A DNA stretch of 64,000 nucleotides from an uncultured Burkholderiaceae bacterium (lineage in GTDB: Bacteria; Pseudomonadota; Gammaproteobacteria; Burkholderiales; Burkholderiaceae_C): contig CAYJLV010000022.1 of NCBI GenBank assembly GCA_964371405.1, forward strand, positions 1,227 to 65,226, written 5' to 3'. A program made the position numbers and the translations under genes. Positions 7,023-63,007 of the stretch are shown here, piece after piece. Position 1 is the stretch's first letter. Each line of letters begins with the position of its first letter. The notes beneath the pieces were generated by a model. That model had not been told where the DNA came from. It ran no database searches and worked only from the letters and a program-made list of their open reading frames with translations.

Positions 7023-8336
<1,314 letters not shown>

Positions 8337-55587: not shown

Positions 55588-57312
55588 ATGCCCTCGCTTT
55601 CGTCGCGCCTCGCGCGCATCGCCCCGTATTACGCGAGCGGACGCCGTGGCTTCGTCGTCGCCATCGCCGCGATGGTGATCGCAGCAGCGACCGAGCCGGC
55701 GATTCCCGCATTGCTGCAGCCCGTGCTCGACCGCGGCTTCCAGCAGGGCACGCTGCCGCTGTGGTTCGTGCCGGCGGCGCTGATCGGGCTGTTCCTGGTG
55801 CGCGGCAGCGCCGGTTACCTGGCCGATATCGCGCTGGCCTGGGGCTCCAACCGCGGTCTGTTCGAGTTGCGGCGCACGATTTTCGAGCGCGTGCTGACGG
55901 CGCAGCCGGCGCTGTTCGGCGGGCAGTCGGCGAGCAGCCTGACCAACACCGTCGTCTACGAGGCGCTGCAGGGCTCGAACCTGCTCGTCTACTCGCTGCT
56001 GACGCTGCTCAAGGACTCGCTGGCCGTCGTCGCGCTGCTCGGCTACCTGCTGTGGCTGAACTGGCAGCTCACGCTGTTCGTGCTGGTGCTCGCGCCGGCT
56101 GTCGCCATCGTGATGCGGGTCGTCAGCAAGCGGCTGCACCGGCTGACGCTGCAGAGCCAGACCGCCACCGACGAGCTGGCCTACGTCGTCGAGGAGAACG
56201 TGCTCGCGTGGCGCATCGTGCGGCTGCACGGCGCGGCGGCGCAGCAGGCGGCGCGCTTCGCACGCAGCAGCGAATGGCTGCGCCGGCTGATGCTGAAGTC
56301 GACCGCCGCCGGCTCGTCGGTAACGCCGATCACGCAGATGATGGCCGCCGCCGCGCTGTCGGCCGTCATCGCCGTCGCGCTGTGGCAGGGCAAGGAGGGC
56401 GGCACTTCGGTCGGCGGCTTCGTCGCCTTCGTCACGGCGATGCTGATGCTGATCGCGCCGGTGAAGCGCCTGTCGGACCTGGCCGGCCCGCTGACGCGCA
56501 GCCTGACGGCGCTGGAGCGCGGCGTCGCGCTGATCGAGGCTCACCAGCCCGAAGCCGGCGGCACGCACGACCCCGGCCGCGCGAAAGGCCACGTCGAGCT
56601 GCGCGACGTGTCGGTCCGCTACCGCGATGACCAGTCGCCCGCGCTCGACGGCGTGACGCTCGAATTGCGCCCGGGCGAAGCCGTCGCGTTGGTCGGCCCC
56701 TCGGGCGGCGGCAAGTCGACGCTGGTCAACCTGCTGCCGCGCTTCATCGAGCCGACCGGCGGCGACCTGCGCCTCGACGGCCACCCGATCGACTGGTGGG
56801 AGACGCAGGCGCTGCGCCGCCAGTTCGCGCTGGTCAGCCAGGACGTCGTGCTGTTCAACGACACGATCGCCGAGAACGTGTGCCTCGGCGGCACACTCGA
56901 CCGCGAGCGCGTGCAGGGCGCACTGCGCAGCGCCAACCTGGCGGACTACGTCGCGACGCTGCCCCAGGGCATCGACACCATGATCGGGCACAACGGCAGC
57001 GCGCTGTCGGGCGGCCAGCGCCAGCGGCTGGCGATCGCGCGCGCCATCTACAAGGACGCGCCGATCCTGATCCTCGACGAGGCGACGTCGGCGCTCGACT
57101 CCGAGTCGGAGCGCTCGGTGCAGTCCGCGCTCGAGCTGCTGATGAAGGGCCGCACCTCGCTCGTCATCGCGCACCGGCTCTCGACGATCGAGCGCGCTGA
57201 CCGCATCGTCGCGCTCGAGGCCGGTCGCATCGTCGAACAGGGCACGCACGCCGAGCTGCTGGCGCGCGGCGGCCTCTATGCACGCCTGCACGCCTTGCAG
57301 TTCAGGAGTTGA
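55588..57312 (+). CDS. msbA: lipid A export ABC transporter permease/ATPase MsbA
   Basis: Six-TM domain plus NBD (GPSGGGKST, LSGGQRQRLAIARA, ILILDEATS). 574 aa. Confidence 0.85.
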   Translation: MPSLSSRLARIAPYYASGRRGFVVAIAAMVIAAATEPAIPALLQPVLDRGFQQGTLPLWFVPAALIGLFLVRGSAGYLADIALAWGSNRGLFELRRTIFERVLTAQPALFGGQSASSLTNTVVYEALQGSNLLVYSLLTLLKDSLAVVALLGYLLWLNWQLTLFVLVLAPAVAIVMRVVSKRLHRLTLQSQTATDELAYVVEENVLAWRIVRLHGAAAQQAARFARSSEWLRRLMLKSTAAGSSVTPITQMMAAAALSAVIAVALWQGKEGGTSVGGFVAFVTAMLMLIAPVKRLSDLAGPLTRSLTALERGVALIEAHQPEAGGTHDPGRAKGHVELRDVSVRYRDDQSPALDGVTLELRPGEAVALVGPSGGGKSTLVNLLPRFIEPTGGDLRLDGHPIDWWETQALRRQFALVSQDVVLFNDTIAENVCLGGTLDRERVQGALRSANLADYVATLPQGIDTMIGHNGSALSGGQRQRLAIARAIYKDAPILILDEATSALDSESERSVQSALELLMKGRTSLVIAHRLSTIERADRIVALEAGRIVEQGTHAELLARGGLYARLHALQFRS

Positions 57313-57315
57313 ACC

Positions 57316-57906
57316 ATGACGAATCCGCCCATCAGCCGCTGGCCGGTGCCCGCCCTCGAAGATCTGCCCGACGACATCCGTGTGCGCATCCTCGAAGTGC
57401 AGGCCAAGGCCGGCTTCGTGCCCAACGTGTTCCTCACGCTGGCGCACCGCCCCGACGAGTTCCGCGCCTTCATGGCCTACCACGACGCGCTGCTGCTGCG
57501 CGAGTCGGGCCTGACCAAGGGCGAGAAGGAGATGATCATCGTCGCCACGAGCGGCGCCAACGGCTGCCTCTACTGCGTCGTCGCGCACGGTGCGATCCTG
57601 CGCGTCTACGAGAAGAAGCCCCTCATCGCCGACCAGATCGCGGTCAACTACCGCAAGGCCGACCTCACGCCGCGCCAGCAGGCCATGCTCGACTTCGCGA
57701 TGAAGGTCTGCACCGACTCGGCCGCCATCGCCGACGCCGAATTCGACGCGCTGCGCGCGCACGGCTTCGGCGATGAAGACATCTGGGACATCGGCGCCAT
57801 CACGGCCTTCTTCGGTTTGTCCAACCGCATGGCCAACCTGATCTCGATGCGGCCGAACGACGAGTTCTATCTGATGGGGCGGGTGCCGCGGGCGGCGAAG
57901 AGCTGA
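57316..57906 (+). CDS. AhpD-like / carboxymuconolactone decarboxylase family peroxidase-related protein
   Basis: CMD-domain motif with CxxC (GANGCLYCVVAHG). Starts 4 nt after the msbA stop. Confidence 0.8.
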   Translation: MTNPPISRWPVPALEDLPDDIRVRILEVQAKAGFVPNVFLTLAHRPDEFRAFMAYHDALLLRESGLTKGEKEMIIVATSGANGCLYCVVAHGAILRVYEKKPLIADQIAVNYRKADLTPRQQAMLDFAMKVCTDSAAIADAEFDALRAHGFGDEDIWDIGAITAFFGLSNRMANLISMRPNDEFYLMGRVPRAAKS

Positions 57907-57989
57907 GCGGCGTAGCCGAGTACCTTCTCTGCGAACGCGATCATGTCGTCGATGTCGAAGCGCCATTCGCGATCGGCGGGTTCAGACAT
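57867..57989 (-). pseudogene. N-terminal stub of a DUF86/HepT-type toxin gene
   Basis: MSEPADREWRFDIDDMIAFAEKVLGYAAQ resembles the DUF86 N-terminus. The frame then runs antisense into the ahpD-like 3' end and stops after 40 codons, whereas full-length proteins have about 115-140 aa. Confidence 0.5.
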
Positions 57990-58002
57990 GGACTGCCTCG
58001 CG

Positions 58003-58194
58003 CTATTTGAACGGCTGCAATTCGGGCCGCAGCGCCTTGTCGGTGACGAGATCGACCGGCCGCCCGAGCAGATCCTCCAGGAAGAACTGAATCCCAAAGC
58101 AGCGATCCGACGTGGCAGGGCCGTTGAAGGAAGCCAGGATGTCGACGTCGCTGTCGGATCGTGCTGCATCGCGCGCGGTCGATCCGAGCGCGGT
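58003..58194 (-). pseudogene. minimal nucleotidyltransferase (MNT antitoxin) remnant with in-frame TGA and no start codon
   Basis: Reads (TGA)TALGSTARDAARSDSDVDILASFNGPATSDRCFGIQFFLEDLLGRPVDLVTDKALRPELQPFK*. This is a GS-x9-13-D-x-D NTase core. The upstream frame has no ATG/GTG/TTG start. Its stop lies 13 nt before the HepT stub ATG. Confidence 0.55.
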
Positions 58195-58299
58195 TCATTC
58201 GAGACTCTGATTCTCAGCGAGGTCGATACGAGCGAAGTCTGGGCGCAGTCCTGTCAGATCCCGATTGTCGCTGCGTCTCGTCGATGCACAGGCAACCCC

Positions 58300-58521
58300 T
58301 CACAGCAGCACGATGTCGTATTGAGGGGGCGGATTCGGAAAGCGTTGACGGGACAACGACTTGCGCTCACGCCCTCGGCTTGTGTCGGTTCGAGCTACCC
58401 GTCTGGCTACCCTCGACCATCGGGCTTTGCCGAGACGCCGAAACACGTCGTGATCCACAAGGTCATCGCCCGAGACGTTCATCTTGATGAAGGCTACACC
58501 AATCCCGTTTGGGATCCGCAT
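58300..58521 (-). other. 73-codon ORF ending in an RNase G-like C-terminus (possible displaced rng 3' remnant)
   Basis: Ends ...QRFPNPPPQYDIVLL*, compared with the rng end ...AEPTGSPERYDIVLM*. Its ATG shares one nt with the HEPN stop (TGATG). Coding status is uncertain. Confidence 0.3.
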
Positions 58522-58928
58522 CAGAGCACGCCTTCCGCCCAGGCTGCGAACTCGTCCAACTCGACCAGCAGCCGCTGCGCCTCTTCGCGCGTGGTGCTTC
58601 GAGCGCCATAGTTGACTTCATCCTTGCGGCCGATCAGCTTGCGAAAGAATTTCTCCTGCTTGTCGGGCAGGCGGTTGCCCAACACCTCGCGCAGGAGCCT
58701 CGGCGCACTCTGGTGGTCCTGCTTGTTGACCACGCCCTTAGCCTTGGCTGTCACCGCGTCGCCGTACGCGATCGTCGCGGTGACCATCAGCGTGATGGCG
58801 CCGTTGTAGCTCTTGCTCTGGCCGAGCACGACCAAGCTGCGCGCCGACTCGTGGAACTCGCGCGCCTGCAGCAGCCGAGCCGACGAATGCACGGCGTCGA
58901 CCGCCTTGCGAGGGCCCTGATTCGTCAT
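58521..58928 (-). CDS. HEPN-like protein
   Basis: 135 aa and helical. ARLLQAREFHESARSLVVLGQSKSYNGAITLMVTATIAYGDAV ... GRKDEVNYGARSTTREEAQRLLVELDEFAAW has a HEPN-like layout. It shows R101-x5-Y107 where the canonical motif would be Rx4-6H. Its ATG overlaps the NTase stop (ATGA). Confidence 0.6.
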   Translation of the reverse strand: MTNQGPRKAVDAVHSSARLLQAREFHESARSLVVLGQSKSYNGAITLMVTATIAYGDAVTAKAKGVVNKQDHQSAPRLLREVLGNRLPDKQEKFFRKLIGRKDEVNYGARSTTREEAQRLLVELDEFAAWAEGVL

Positions 58929-59575
58929 GCGGTTGCCTTCGCGAGCCTCCGGCGCGCTTGATCGGGCGCCGCGCCCTTGAGGACTCGGCCATCACGCACG
59001 ACATCGGACCACCAGGGGTCGTCTTCGGGTAGGGCCGCCAGCTCCTTCGGCGTGAGCGCCGTCAGCGAGATGCGCAGTTGCTGGCCATCTTCGAGAGGCA
59101 TCAGATCCTCCCGGACCTGATCGGCCACAGCCTGTGAGCGGACCAGGATCGCGATGTCGAGATCGCTGGCGGGCGAGTCCTCCCCGCGTGCGACGCTGCC
59201 GTAGAGCCACGCAGCGCTGACCGCCGGGCCGCGCCTGGCCAGTACCTCGCGGATCGATTCGAGCAAGGCATCCCAGCGCCGTTGTTCTTCCTGAAACAGA
59301 GCGACGAGCGCGCCGGAAAAAGGGTGTGACGGTTTCAGTGCGTACAGCTGAGTTCGCCCTGAACCGTGGATGATCACCAGTTGCTGTCGGGCGAGCGTGT
59401 CCAGAACCAGCCTAACGCCCTGCGGCGTGAGGCCTGCCACCCCGGCGAGTTGTGGCGCCGATTGCGGTGCCCGGTCTGCCACCAGCGCGCGCAGGACGCG
59501 CACGCTTCCGGCGCTACCCAGGATGCTGGTGAGCGGGTACCGAAGGTGGCTTTGGGTCTGGGACAGCGCAGGCAT
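58925..59575 (-). CDS. winged-helix DNA-binding domain fused to a minimal nucleotidyltransferase
   Basis: N-terminal MarR/ArsR-like wHTH (VRVLRALVADRAPQSAPQLAGVAGLTPQGVRLVLDTLARQQLV). NTase motif LYGSVARGEDSPASDLDIAIL (G126-S127 ... D138-x-D140). Confidence 0.75.
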   Translation of the reverse strand: MPALSQTQSHLRYPLTSILGSAGSVRVLRALVADRAPQSAPQLAGVAGLTPQGVRLVLDTLARQQLVIIHGSGRTQLYALKPSHPFSGALVALFQEEQRRWDALLESIREVLARRGPAVSAAWLYGSVARGEDSPASDLDIAILVRSQAVADQVREDLMPLEDGQQLRISLTALTPKELAALPEDDPWWSDVVRDGRVLKGAAPDQARRRLAKATA

Positions 59576-59580
59576 GCCGA

Positions 59581-59609
59581 AACATATGACTTTGCTTACG
59601 ACAAGTCAA
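59581..59609 (-). promoter_or_regulatory. sigma-70-like promoter TTGACT-N17-TATGTT for the wHTH-NTase/HEPN pair
   Basis: On the minus strand, TTGACT (59609-59604), a 17-nt spacer, then TATGTT (59586-59581). Only 5 nt (tcggc) lie between the -10 and the ATG at 59575, and there is no SD. Confidence 0.5.
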
Positions 59610-59632
59610 GTTTCTCTATGGAAAGTTGACTT
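59603..59632. promoter_or_regulatory. 12-bp inverted repeat overlapping the -35 (candidate autoregulatory operator)
   Basis: aagtcaagtttc-tctatg-gaaagttgactt has 11 of 12 complementary positions. It lies in a very A/T-rich spacer (22 G+C in nt 59581-59640). Confidence 0.5.
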
Positions 59633-59753
59633 CTCACTACGCAACCCTACTCGGGTGCACCTGCCGCCGCACTTCGCGGGAGGCACTCTCAACCAGGCGT
59701 CTAGTCCCAAGATGGGACTTCGGTCAATCTCGAGCCCTCGACGGCCGCTTCCA

Positions 59754-61349
59754 TCAGCCCGACCTCCAAACGAGTTCCTCGTCGATGACCTCGATGAACC
59801 TCGCGGCAGTGAAGCCGCCGGGGTAGAGCCCTTCTCGATCCTGCGAGGCCCGCGGTTGCCGCTCAGCGCTTCTCTCGGAGCGCGCAGACAGCAGTCCTTC
59901 CGGGTCGTCGAGCAGGTGGCGGTCGTCGCGCAAGGCGATGAGGATCTCCTCGAGCGAGACCTTGAGGAAGCCGGAGAAGCGCTGGTGATCGCACTCGATG
60001 GACGTGTCGACGATCCAGCCATGGACGTCGGTCAAGGGCACGTGCGCAGGGCCGCCGAACGCCTCGACCAGCGAGGAGTCGACCTCCAGCGCCGACCGCA
60101 CTGCGGCAAGCTTCCGACCGATCTGCCGGCCCGCCCTGCGCAAGGTGGATGTCCCGTGCACCCAGGCGTCGCGCTGTGACTGGCGCACGTAGGTCGACTT
60201 GATCTCCAGGACGAACAGATGGCCGTCGCGTGCGGCGATCACGTCGACCTCACCGGCCTCCTTCGCGTCGGCGGGAGGATTCCAGTTCGTCACGACGCGG
60301 AAGCCTCTCCCGCGCAGAAGGTCCGCCAGCCGAGTCTCGATCTGCTGTGTCTCGTCCCGAGCCTCGGTGCGCCGTGACCCCAGGCGGCGCAGATTGTTGA
60401 TGGCCGCAGTGCTGTTGTTCTGCGTGCCGACGACCCAGGGCAACTGGACGAACGTCGCGCCGAACCGGAGCACCGGGCGCTCGAACAGGCGTGGATGCAG
60501 TCCGCCCTCACCGCGCTGGAGCCGCTCGGCGATCGCCACGAGGTCATAGGTCCAGAAGTCCAGGATCGCCGCGGCCATTCGGGCGCTGCCCTGAGGCTGC
60601 GCGTCGTTGACCGTCCAGCCGGTGATGTTCGCGATCCTCGCCGACCGATCGGACCAGGTCAGCGGCCAGCGGTTCTGCAACCCATCGCGCAGGCCGTTGA
60701 AGGCCAGTGCGCGCAGGCCGGCGATCCAGTCTCCGCTCTGCGAGGTCAGCACCGCGAACTCGGCGAGGAAGTCGCGCAGGAAGAACACCGACATCAGCTC
60801 CAGCGAGAGCAAGGCCTGGAACAGATCCACGCTCTCGCCGGACTCGGCCACGACCCGGTCGCCGACCCCGTACACCTCGCGCAGGCGCAGCTGGGTTCGC
60901 ATCGCCCGGATGTAGGCGAGCCGGTTGTGATCCGCGTTCTCGGGACTGCCGATTCGGGCATGTGCGAGCGCCGAGTCGGCAAAGGCACCGGCAGCCCGGT
61001 AGAACCAGTAGCCGTGCAGGCGCTCGAGCTTGCTGCCGTCGCAAGACCAGCGGGCCCTGCTTGCCGGATCGATCTCGACAATCTCCAGTCGGTTGCCACG
61101 TCGCTCGAATCGGATCGAGTCATCGTGGCAGAAAGCGTCGATGCTTCTCGACATGAACTCGTCGAGCTCGATCTGCGCCTCCAGCATCGTGCCGAAAAAA
61201 TCCAGCGTCGCGTGCGCGGCTGAAGCGTCCGGGAACTCCGGGAACAGCGCCGCCGAGATGAAGCTCCTGACAGAACCGGCGATGGCCTGGTCGTCCAGGC
61301 GCAAGGACGCCGGGGCAGCGCTTCGCAGCTTGCCCCGCTCTCCTGCCAT
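59754..61349 (-). CDS. 531-aa protein with an unrecognised N-terminal region and a C-terminal PD-(D/E)xK (restriction-endonuclease-fold) signature
   Basis: aa 333-384, ETQQIETRLADLLRGRGFRVVTNWNPPADAKEAGEVDVIAARDGHLFVLEIKS, matches the E ... GEiDlIa ... lvfvEvK pattern of YraN/NERD/Mrr-type nucleases (D369, E382, K384). AAGGAG lies 8 nt upstream of the ATG. Confidence 0.7.
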   Translation of the reverse strand: MAGERGKLRSAAPASLRLDDQAIAGSVRSFISAALFPEFPDASAAHATLDFFGTMLEAQIELDEFMSRSIDAFCHDDSIRFERRGNRLEIVEIDPASRARWSCDGSKLERLHGYWFYRAAGAFADSALAHARIGSPENADHNRLAYIRAMRTQLRLREVYGVGDRVVAESGESVDLFQALLSLELMSVFFLRDFLAEFAVLTSQSGDWIAGLRALAFNGLRDGLQNRWPLTWSDRSARIANITGWTVNDAQPQGSARMAAAILDFWTYDLVAIAERLQRGEGGLHPRLFERPVLRFGATFVQLPWVVGTQNNSTAAINNLRRLGSRRTEARDETQQIETRLADLLRGRGFRVVTNWNPPADAKEAGEVDVIAARDGHLFVLEIKSTYVRQSQRDAWVHGTSTLRRAGRQIGRKLAAVRSALEVDSSLVEAFGGPAHVPLTDVHGWIVDTSIECDHQRFSGFLKVSLEEILIALRDDRHLLDDPEGLLSARSERSAERQPRASQDREGLYPGGFTAARFIEVIDEELVWRSG

Positions 61350-61374
61350 GCCCAGCTCCTTGGCACCGGATCGC

Positions 61375-61406
61375 AGCTACCACTCTAGCTACCATTCCAG
61401 CTTCCA
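61375..61406. repeat. three 8-bp direct repeats AGCT(A/T)CCA at exact 12-bp phasing
   Basis: AGCTACCA at 61375, AGCTACCA at 61387, AGCTTCCA at 61399. They lie 26-57 nt upstream of the 531-aa ORF start. Confidence 0.5.
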
Positions 61407-61525
61407 AATTCTGGTGGAACAGGGTGGGACTTCAAGAGTCCTGGTGAAGCGCTGAAACCCGGAATCGCCAGGATTCATGCGGGTTTGCGGGTGGCAAGTG
61501 GGTCGGCGTGAGACGCCGTGAAACC

Positions 61526-63007
61526 TCACATCAGAACAATGTCGTAGCGCTCAGGCGACCCCGTCGGCTCGGCCCGCAGCGAGATCGGCTTGCCGATGAA
61601 TTCCGACAGCGCCGCCAGGTGCAGCCCCTCCTCGTCGAGCAGCATCTCGACGACGGCGGCCGAGGCGACGACGCGGAACTCCTTGGGGTTGAACTGGCGC
61701 GCCTCGCGCAGGATCTCGCGCAGGATGTCGTAGCAGACGCTGCGCGGCGTCTTGACCTGGCCCTTGCCTTCGCAGGTCGGGCACGGCTCGCACAGCATGT
61801 GGGCGAGCGATTCGCGGGTGCGCTTGCGCGTCATCTCCACCAGCCCGAGCTGCGTGAAGCCGCTGACGGTGATCTTGGTGCGGTCGCGCGCGAGCTGGCG
61901 CCGCAGCTCGGCGAGCACGGCGACGCGGTGGTCCTCGCGCGCCATGTCGATGAAGTCGAGGATGATGATGCCGCCGAGGTTGCGCAGCCGCAGCTGGCGA
62001 GCGATCGCCTGCGTCGCCTCGAGGTTGGTCTTGAAGACGGTGTCGTCGAAGTTGCGCGCGCCGACGTAGCCGCCGGTGTTGACGTCGACCGTCGTCAGCG
62101 CTTCGGTCTGGTCGATCACCAGGTAGCCGCCCGACTTCAGCTCGACGCGCCGCGCCAGCGCGCGCGTGATCTCCTCGTCGATGCCGTAGAGGTCGAATAT
62201 CGGCCGCTCGCCCTTGTAATGCTCGAGCTTCTTCACTGCACCGGGCGTGAAGGCCTCGCCGAAGGCGCGCAGCGTCTCGTACTGCAGCTTCGAGTCGATG
62301 CGGATCGACTGCGTCGCGTCGTTGGTCAGGTCGCGCAGCACACGCTCGCCGAGGCTCAGGTCCAGGTGCAGCAGCGTGCCGGGCGGCGCCGCCTGGCTGC
62401 GCTCGCGCACCGCGGCCCAGGTGCGGCGCAGGTAGCGGATGTCGTCGGCCAGCTCGGCGTCGGTCGCGTCCTCGGCGTTGGTGCGCAGGATGAAGCCGCC
62501 GCCCACGGTGCCGGCCTCGGGCGCGGCGGCCAGCAGCGCCATGCGCGCGCGAAGTTGCTCGCGCAGCTCGGGCGAACCGATCTTCTGGCTGATGCCGATG
62601 CGCTCGTCCTGCGGCAGGAAGACCAGCAGCCGGCCGGCGATGCTGATCTGCGACGACAGGCGCGCACCCTTGGTGCCGATCGGGTCCTTGATCACCTGCA
62701 CCGTCAGCGGTTGGCCCTCGAACACGAGTCGCTCGATCGGCGGCGGTGCCGCGTCGCCGGCGCCGTTGCGCGCCGGCATGTTGGCGAGGTGCAGGTCGGC
62801 AACGTGCAGGAACGCGGCGCGTTCGAGGCCGATGTCGACGAAGGCCGACTGCATGCCCGGCAGCACGCGCGCGACGCGGCCGGCATAGATGTTGCCGACC
62901 AGCCCGCGTTCGAGCGCGCGCTCGAGGTGCAGCTCCTGGACGGCGCCGTTCTCGACGATCGCGACCCGCGTTTCCTGCGGCGTCCAGTTGATCAGGATGT
63001 CTTGCAT
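61526..63007 (-). CDS. rng: ribonuclease G
   Basis: MQDILINWTPQETRVAIVENGAVQELHLE..., an S1 domain and RNase E/G catalytic-core motifs. 493 aa. Confidence 0.95.
   Translation of the reverse strand: MQDILINWTPQETRVAIVENGAVQELHLERALERGLVGNIYAGRVARVLPGMQSAFVDIGLERAAFLHVADLHLANMPARNGAGDAAPPPIERLVFEGQPLTVQVIKDPIGTKGARLSSQISIAGRLLVFLPQDERIGISQKIGSPELREQLRARMALLAAAPEAGTVGGGFILRTNAEDATDAELADDIRYLRRTWAAVRERSQAAPPGTLLHLDLSLGERVLRDLTNDATQSIRIDSKLQYETLRAFGEAFTPGAVKKLEHYKGERPIFDLYGIDEEITRALARRVELKSGGYLVIDQTEALTTVDVNTGGYVGARNFDDTVFKTNLEATQAIARQLRLRNLGGIIILDFIDMAREDHRVAVLAELRRQLARDRTKITVSGFTQLGLVEMTRKRTRESLAHMLCEPCPTCEGKGQVKTPRSVCYDILREILREARQFNPKEFRVVASAAVVEMLLDEEGLHLAALSEFIGKPISLRAEPTGSPERYDIVLM

Follow-up and report, generated by a model that had tools for sequence, protein, structure and literature searches.

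Probable remains of a mobile defence island beside rng in an uncultured Burkholderiaceae bacterium

The subject of this study is a block of lower-GC DNA at positions 57907-61525 of a 64,000-nucleotide (nt) stretch, hereafter the window, from contig CAYJLV010000022.1 of an uncultured Burkholderiaceae bacterium. The block lies between an ahpD-like gene and rng, and carries an open reading frame (ORF) of 531 amino acids (aa) with a PD-(D/E)xK nuclease signature, an overlapping gene pair for a nucleotidyltransferase (NTase) with a winged helix-turn-helix (wHTH) region and a HEPN protein, and the remains of another pair, consisting of a minimal nucleotidyltransferase (MNT) and HepT. A preliminary description of the locus had pointed to these genes, and all the ORFs it named were found on the minus strand at the positions it gave. 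Related loci used for comparison are designated L001 onwards and homologous proteins P0001 onwards. The features are, from left to right:

57316..57906, plus strand: ahpD-like peroxidase-related gene of the CMD family, left backbone flank (TIGR01926 3e-66, PF02627 2e-13)
57909..58299, minus strand: Class I MNT/HepT (type VII-like) pseudogene pair, outside the repeat-bounded island (from frame translations)
58298..58320, minus strand: distal att-like repeat, copy of the rng stop region, encoding QYDIVLL-stop (20/23 bases)
58300..58520, minus strand: conserved island tail, non-coding or a degenerate rng-3'-like 73-aa ORF (from comparison with related islands)
58521..58928, minus strand: HEPN135, intact 135-aa non-canonical HEPN protein, putative Class II HEPN/MNT partner (alignment and fold)
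58925..59575, minus strand: NT216, intact 216-aa wHTH-fused MNT with GSX10DXD (PF18765, PF01909, PDC-M05A)
59576..59632, minus strand: conserved predicted promoter/operator region of the pair (promoter scan and conservation)
59633..59742, minus strand: 110-nt filler where related islands have PD-Lambda-1 (DUF4041/T5orf172), matching only L097 (same organism)
59754..61349, minus strand: 5'-truncated remnant (the 531-aa ORF) of a ~750-aa gene with a helical domain and a NERD-like PD-(D/E)xK domain (homology 59743-61331)
61332..61525 (194 nt), minus strand: unique junction DNA between rng and the truncated nuclease gene
61524..61546, minus strand: proximal att-like repeat, the functional rng stop region (match to the distal copy)
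61526..63007, minus strand: rng (RNase G), right backbone flank, followed by maf and rlmH (Pfam labels on L098)

With a GC content of 0.649 against 0.705 +/- 0.017 in non-overlapping 3.6-kb windows (z = -3.4), the block has the lowest value among 604 sliding 3.6-kb windows of the whole window. The five spot G+C counts reported earlier (40, 35, 38, 22 and 49 per 60 nt) were exact.

The genes of NT216 and HEPN135 overlap by 4 nt, and 216 and 135 aa are the fixed lengths of the two protein families. NT216 matches two Pfam NTase families above their cut-offs, PF18765 with 37.6 bits (cut-off 26.9) and PF01909 with 33.5 bits (cut-off 21), and its motif G126-S127-x10-D138-x-D140 is invariant in 25 homologues, which confirms the earlier call of a winged-helix-fused MNT. 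The N-terminus is a winged-helix region with weak ArsR/HTH_20-type matches, and residues 16-196, comprising wHTH and NTase, match the PADLOC model PDC-M05A at 2.3e-16. HEPN135 itself reaches 13.4 bits with PF05168 against a cut-off of 22 bits and has no PDC-M05B match at E <= 0.1. A profile search of 1.84 billion representatives gave 387 relatives, and among the 60 that were aligned 8 match PF05168 (best 6e-5) and 4-6 match PDC-M05B (best 3e-5). In this alignment no Rx4-6H motif is present, D57 and K102 are invariant, and H72, Y107 and W130 have a conservation of 90% or more. The HEPN135 profile found nothing significant among the PDB sequences, and only the fold comparison was informative. 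The AlphaFold model (pLDDT 93.7) superposes on AF_0298 with a TM of 0.75/0.80, which bears out the HEPN-like call, and also on TT1696, ST0689 and the sacsin HEPN, less well on HepT; for the PF05168-type HEPNs AF_0298, TT1696 and ST0689 the TM values are 0.65-0.80.

Class II HEPN/MNT modules consist of PF05168 and PF01909 proteins with GSX10DXD, a conserved Tyr and no RX4H, and their toxin role is a candidate one (Yao et al. 2020, PMC7641770). PDC-M05 is a candidate system of PADLOC (NTase + HEPN) whose antiviral role is unconfirmed (PMC12988326). Judged from sequence the pair fits both and would thus be an already catalogued module, and not the uncharacterised, unnamed one it had been taken for. 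An upstream GSX10DXD NTase overlaps a downstream HEPN-fold protein of ~135 aa, which is without Rx4H yet has the conserved Tyr; NT216 matches PDC-M05A, and relatives of HEPN135 match PDC-M05B and PF05168. The fit differs in that HEPN135 itself is sub-threshold for PF05168 and is without a PDC-M05B match. The subfamily in the window is small (the 387 representatives), its named close homologues are from Burkholderiales, and D57, H72, K102 and Y107 form its signature. The type VII HepT/MntA system (Class I) resembles the pair in gene order, gene overlap, the GSX10DXD NTase and a partner of HEPN fold that has a Tyr close to where the motif lies. It differs in that HEPN135 is without RX4HXY, that no match to DUF86 (PF01934) or NTase_sub_bind (PF08780) is found, and that NT216, which has the N-terminal wHTH, reaches 37.2 bits with the MntA equivalog NF047752, whose cut-off is 60 bits.

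By analogy with HepT/MntA, NT216 with its GSX10DXD motif probably nucleotidylylates HEPN135, most plausibly at Tyr107, and would thereby keep HEPN135 inactive, while the N-terminal wHTH of NT216 probably autoregulates the operon. Canonical HEPN RNase cleavage seems unlikely as the effector activity of HEPN135, since Rx4H is absent. The same absence of Rx4-6H throughout the 60-sequence alignment would also suit a different role, in which the pair is a two-subunit nucleotidyltransferase or regulator with a non-catalytic HEPN as its substrate-binding or regulatory subunit, and has nothing to do with toxin/antitoxin (TA) function or defence. Non-catalytic HEPNs such as sacsin are among the closest folds, the pair stands right after rng amid ordinary genes in L098 and L181, and the unconfirmed antiviral role of PDC-M05 points the same way. 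So does locus L072 (13346-14090, after rng), where the HEPN135 homologue is full length with 79% identity and the NTase is a frameshifted fragment (residues 103-213), a combination that calls for caution over a strict toxin/antitoxin reading. However, the distribution of the pair is sporadic and mobile, with copies in a prophage accessory region, in an island rich in insertion sequences (IS) and TA genes and in rng-targeting islands, and it is present at only one of 29 loci where ahpD-like and rng are neighbours. Gene order, the 4-nt overlap and GSX10DXD are as in HepT/MntA, and the conserved Tyr is located as in Class II modules. We therefore consider the regulator role unlikely, and keep to a Class II HEPN/MNT module as the preferred reading of the pair.

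Upstream of NT216 a sigma-70-like promoter was predicted, TTGACT-17-TATGTT at 59609-59581, with the ATG of NT216 6 nt past the -10 hexamer; the scan found one site where 0.2 were expected. The upstream region is kept in L002, L098, L099, L100 and L101, though the proteins there can be only 77% identical. At 59590-59632 it holds an inverted repeat, AAGTCAA-N16-TTGACTT, around TTTCCATAGAGAAA, which is a candidate operator for the wHTH of NT216. A related motif, ATAG(A/G)GAAA, is conserved in L098 and is there duplicated in inverted orientation.

The pair also occurs without the nuclease gene. It lies directly after rng in Paucibacter (L098) and in L181-L183, in L184 within an island rich in IS and TA genes, and in L185/L186 (5142-7408) in the accessory region of a prophage, after lambda-type tail-fibre genes (GpJ-like), a Dam-type methyltransferase and a SIS-domain gene. 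Its dN/dS is 0.12-0.19. This occurrence without the nuclease gene, the conserved promoter and the low dN/dS together indicate that the NTase/HEPN pair is autonomous, and by its sequence it is intact, with a conserved predicted promoter of its own. Two of its surroundings hold large genes that may be worth recording. In L099 (4113-6842 and 8571-11042) and L100 (2-2296) the pair is flanked, beside a VapBC-like pair, by unannotated ORFs of 909, 823 and 764 aa, which have no Pfam match on record and are not homologous to the family of the window nuclease. In L181-L183 (7593-10775) a 1060-aa gene of PLD-nuclease/helicase/DUF3427 type is convergent to the rng-adjacent pair, a further neighbour of defence type at this site.

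The 531-aa ORF had been described as an intact nuclease. Its PD-(D/E)xK triad stands: D369/E382/K384 equal D582/E595/K597 of the closest homologue P0001 (744 aa) and are invariant in 60 homologues, the catalytic core follows the pattern E-x-D ... E-x-K, and the beta-strand core is modelled confidently. Its intactness does not stand, as 219 N-terminal codons are gone. The ORF has 1074 database homologues, and nearly all among those listed are 740-770 aa long. The window aligns to residues 220-744 of P0001 only and the DNA homology ends at 61331; the ATG and the first 6 codons of the ORF derive from the junction, and the remaining 525 codons are the C-terminal part of the family. The missing ~220 residues contain many nearly invariant positions in a 60-sequence alignment, and in the AlphaFold model of P0001 (pLDDT 84.8, pTM 0.85) this region is confidently all-helical. 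The conserved N-terminus is kept at 94 of 99 loci with a family member. The five exceptions are the window, L097 (same organism, contig end), two more contig-end cuts, and L166, in which the match starts from residue 57 inside the contig. Without the N-terminal ~220 residues the ORF does not have the full-length architecture of this unnamed ~750-aa family.

Database products of 476-532 aa could have indicated a natural short isoform. This candidate was rejected, as in P0111 (491 aa) and P0092 (532 aa) the gene is split and its N-terminal ORF still lies just upstream. In L011-L014 (7207-9476) the nuclease gene is split into ORFs of 264 and 491 aa sharing base 8001, a state found on at least 24 contigs from several samples, which represents either one widespread frameshifted strain or a tolerated two-part form.

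With its conserved, helical N-terminal domain gone, the ORF is on these data most likely a remnant of recent origin, either non-functional or crippled. A short product that is still made and active would represent a NERD-like nuclease, re-wired or without its sensor, translated from a new Shine-Dalgarno (SD) sequence and ATG and possibly reached by read-through from rng. The SD-like AAGGAG (61361-61356) lies 6 nt before the ATG, the frame is open over 1.6 kb with no stops or frameshifts, and the D/E/K triad is complete. Further, when changes were polarised with L007 as outgroup, the window branch showed 15 synonymous and 7 nonsynonymous changes and the branch of the intact copy in L002 showed 16 and 8, that is, no relaxed selection. 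This equal pattern implies either that the deletion is recent or that the short product is still selected, and a recent deletion would yield the same open frame and the same substitutions. The truncation is moreover unique among the 99 loci, the lost region is strongly conserved, and the promoter scan shows no promoter-like site upstream of the ORF. We find a functional short nuclease quite unlikely, and treat the ORF below as a remnant.

As to the family itself, it bears no informative name; in the sources it appears as 'hypothetical protein' or as 'Holliday junction resolvase-like predicted endonuclease'. Its likeness to the NERD/Hjc/YraN-type PD-(D/E)xK nucleases lies in the catalytic core D...ExK and in the PADLOC model 'Viperin-associated NERD', which matches the C-terminal domain at 1e-22 and covers only the last ~140 of 542 model positions. 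It differs from NERD-type nucleases in that Pfam NERD scores 19.9 bits, under the gathering cut-off of 22.1, and in that the long region (~540 residues) upstream of the nuclease domain matches no known family. A search of PDB sequences with the nuclease profile gave nothing significant, only the fold comparison being informative, and a literature search on NERD-domain anti-phage systems returned nothing matching the ~750-aa family.

The best Foldseek match of the full-length model was Upx (PDB 9wuf), with E 4.7e-4 and probability 1.0, yet with a TM of 0.23/0.16 and an rmsd of 26 A. Upx is a single-protein PD-(D/E)xK defence nuclease (PMC13099982, PMC13601566). Like the ~750-aa family it has a large non-catalytic N-terminal or middle region followed by a C-terminal PD-(D/E)xK (ExK) nuclease, and it is a stand-alone gene in defence islands. 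It is on the other hand ~1270 aa long, the TM is only 0.16-0.23, and the window copy is without the N-terminal third. No sequence or profile similarity to Upx was seen for P0001 in PADLOC, and the PDB profile search did not list 9wuf at E <= 1. The resemblance to Upx appears to be an architectural analogy and not membership. We speculate, as a long shot, that the ~750-aa family, which has more than 1000 homologues and is always found in defence-type neighbourhoods, could be an undescribed single-gene anti-phage system on rng-targeting islands, and that the window copy, with its own SD and ATG and no relaxed selection, could be an active sensor-less effector beside a Class II pair with a non-RNase HEPN.

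Related loci hold fuller versions of the block. In L001, L002 and L101 the gene order is an integrase, a 187-aa gene, AbiLi, AbiLii, the 744-aa nuclease, PD-Lambda-1, wHTH-NTase and HEPN, followed by the island tail and a relic of the rng end. The integrase is tyrosine-recombinase-like (PF12835), and the other matches are AbiLi at 2e-95, AbiLii at 8e-26 and PD-Lambda-1 (DUF4041/T5orf172) at 2e-142. AbiLii overlaps the 744-aa nuclease gene by 4 nt, and the PD-Lambda-1 gene is complete in L002 and a fragment in L101. In L001, L101 and L102 the nuclease gene is preceded by AbiLi and AbiLii, whereas L103 shows a cut AbiLii alone, at its end. In L002 the ahpD-like gene follows directly after the relic, and in L101 no ahpD-like gene was seen after it.

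The window has neither AbiLi nor AbiLii, the PD-Lambda-1 region of L002 (3258-4865) has no counterpart in it, and 194 nt of unique DNA stand where the integrase and AbiL genes and the first third of the nuclease gene would be expected. As in the preliminary description, no integrase was found, and a check of the whole window for an integrase homologue confirmed this. Sequence comparison with the relatives thus shows the loss from the window copy of the integrase, of AbiL and PD-Lambda-1, and of 219 codons at the start of the nuclease gene. We also looked for the origin of the two fillers without an informative match: 61332-61535 has a single 52-nt match (L018), and 59633-59742 matches only L097.

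To place the nuclease family in its neighbourhoods we used a metagenome scan that gave 80 further loci with a member. NTase and HEPN homologues lie within 10 kb of the nuclease at one of the 80, a locus of the same island type, and the other 79 have the nuclease family without the pair. AbiLi/AbiLii adjoin it at 3 of the 80 loci, and a pair of SACS and DrmD-like SNF2 genes at 5. Other contexts are Wadjet and AbiE neighbourhoods and a solo copy right after rng with VapBC downstream. The most frequent neighbour cluster is found at no more than 10 of ~85 loci, which rules out a fixed partner. As no partner recurs, the family seems to be a stand-alone gene in defence-type neighbourhoods.

It had been proposed that nuclease, wHTH-NTase and HEPN form one uncharacterised three-gene defence or abortive-infection system. 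All three are conflict-type genes on the same strand within 2.8 kb of foreign DNA, and the same three are near one another in L002 and L101. In these islands, however, PD-Lambda-1 intervenes (complete or as a fragment), and AbiLii, on the upstream side, shares an overlap with the nuclease gene. A promoter of its own precedes the pair, which is found alone in at least 5 other contexts, and the nuclease gene of the window is truncated. The description had itself asked whether nuclease homologues co-occur with NTase/HEPN pairs, and they do so at the single locus out of 80 given above. The notion of an intact three-gene cassette is therefore not upheld, and one system of three genes, already contradicted by the distribution data, is very improbable; the nuclease remnant and the pair are better taken as separate cargo.

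A different same-strand trio recurs in L015/L016 (1-10265), L011-L014 (with the split nuclease), L107-L110 and L112. It consists of a 2518-aa sacsin-like protein (PF25794 SACS), an 880-aa SNF2 helicase (PADLOC DrmD 6e-257) and, 43 nt downstream, the ~750-aa nuclease gene, and may be a distinct DISARM-like or undescribed system.

The ends of the island are marked by a direct repeat, with 20 of 23 bases identical between 58298-58320 and 61524-61546. Translated, the distal copy reads QYDIVLL-stop, as does the consensus C-terminus of rng in related genomes, and the homology between the window and L002 stops exactly at 58300. The rng-stop relic recurs at the distal island end in L002, L101, L102, L103, L156, L157 and L028. 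The 'diverged copy of the rng 3' end' noted earlier is thus real, and it is short, ~23 nt. A longer copy was considered and rejected, as DNA and protein alignments are similar only over QYDIVL(L/M)-stop and the likeness upstream is loose. The tail next to the relic (58300-58520) is 93-94% identical to L002 and L101, and 85% identical over 139 nt to L156, L157 and L028.

Target-end direct repeats thus flank the insert on both sides, as in site-specific integrative islands. Integrase-borne islands at gene 3' ends with defence cargo are similar in that a short direct repeat of the target-gene end bounds the insert, and related copies of the present island have the PF12835 integrase (found in L001, L101 and L156), AbiLi/AbiLii and PD-Lambda-1, with a cargo that is mosaic between hosts. 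The window copy differs from them in having no integrase and having lost most of its cargo; the target is rng and not a tRNA gene, and integration is deduced from the relatives.

Outside the repeat, at 57909-58299, lie the remains of the Class I MNT/HepT pair. The MNT remnant (~58194-57982) is without its N-terminus and has in-frame stops at 58197-58195 and 58005-58003, and the HepT stub (57989-57909) is 27 codons long and runs into the end of the ahpD-like gene. The region is 78% identical to L156, L157 and L028, and L157 has the pair intact, with a 106-aa MNT and a HepT carrying RNRLVHAY (Class I, type VII-like). This substantiates the wreck of a second MNT/HepT pair that was seen before. 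The intact pair of L157 sits between the nuclease gene and the tail and relic, whereas the wreck in the window is outside the relic. This suggests that the window may hold two successive or recombined islands, the older Class I pair having decayed outside the repeat.

To compare the synteny of the site we used the ahpD-like protein as anchor for 80 loci from Burkholderiales genomes. At 29 of the 80, rng lies within 10 kb of the ahpD-like gene. The distance is 19 nt in Caldimonas manganoxidans (L023) and 29-38 nt in L089, L036 and L037, and at the remaining loci the gap is 0.6-9.3 kb with varied contents. The rng gene of the window is 76-87% identical to rng at related loci, and the empty sites belong to the relatives closest in rng (82-83%). 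The cargo at other occupied sites is unrelated, comprising genes of lipopolysaccharide (LPS) glycosyltransferase type and a VapBC-like pair. The island in metagenomic contig L002 is 94-95% identical to the window in nucleotides and the msbA/ahpD-like backbone only 78%, a pattern expected of horizontal transfer. The empty sites in relatives and this contrast in identity agree with the earlier claim of a variable insertion of conflict-type genes, and support that 57907-61525 was acquired horizontally. That the block is ancestral backbone DNA of merely lower GC, as the NTase/HEPN pair adjoining rng in several lineages could suggest, is barely tenable and already refuted by the same identity contrast and empty sites, next to which stand a third-position GC content (GC3) of 0.75-0.87 in the 531-, 216- and 135-aa ORFs against 0.94 in msbA, ahpD-like and rng, and the deletion scars and pseudogenes in the block. 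Searches in other collections added little: Rfam gave no match at E <= 0.1 for 57000-62000, PHROGs gave none for the three window proteins or P0001, and the plasmid collection gave three weak rhizobial matches only, all to HEPN135.

Taken together, we consider it quite probable that 57907-61525 is what erosion has left of a mobile defence island, and not a three-gene system. An integrase-borne island would have inserted at the rng 3' end, an integrase step for which the relatives are the source. Its integrase, AbiL and PD-Lambda-1 genes are gone from the window copy, as is the first third of the nuclease gene, and only the wHTH-NTase/HEPN bicistron likely works as originally built, being transcribed from its own conserved promoter.

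Several observations weigh against this account. The insertion by an integrase is deduced from L001, L101 and L156, whose contigs stop short of rng, and the window itself is without integrase. L098, L181 and L072 have the rng-adjacent pair without a second copy of the rng end, and the NTase/HEPN pair may hence predate the larger island at the rng site. The 531-aa ORF has, as described above, an uninterrupted frame, an SD-like sequence and a substitution pattern like that of the intact copy. Finally, the mechanism by AMPylation and TA function is an analogy, and the intact HEPN beside a frameshifted NTase in L072 is awkward for a strict toxin/antitoxin.

It should be noted that decaying defence islands are common, and that the three-gene system, if true, would have added a new defence system. 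What the eroded island does offer is, first, the rng 3' end next to ahpD-like as a recurrent insertion hot spot in Burkholderiales genomes, with a mosaic, integrase-borne cargo of AbiL, PD-Lambda-1, MNT/HepT, Class II HEPN/MNT and the 750-aa nuclease. Second, it defines a compact and well-conserved bacterial subfamily of Class II HEPN/MNT (PDC-M05) with GSX10DXD, with D57, H72, K102 and Y107, and with a conserved predicted promoter. The pair is therefore a tractable model for Class II HEPN/MNT, a class of candidate function. The 750-aa nuclease family is a reasonable stand-alone defence candidate, and is better studied from a full-length copy than from the window.

Two further observations concern the insertion site. 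In other Burkholderiales, L027, L066 and L081 have clusters of 7-9 kb between ahpD-like and rng, which look LPS/glycosyltransferase-related as judged from N-terminal sequences and heptosyltransferase-like ORFs; as the site holds such clusters, the hot spot does not seem to be specific for defence genes. In the window, a perfect 6-bp hairpin, CGGCGT-CTC-ACGCCG at 61518-61504, lies 8 nt past the rng stop with no T-run following, and the first ~12 nt past this stop resemble those of L072.

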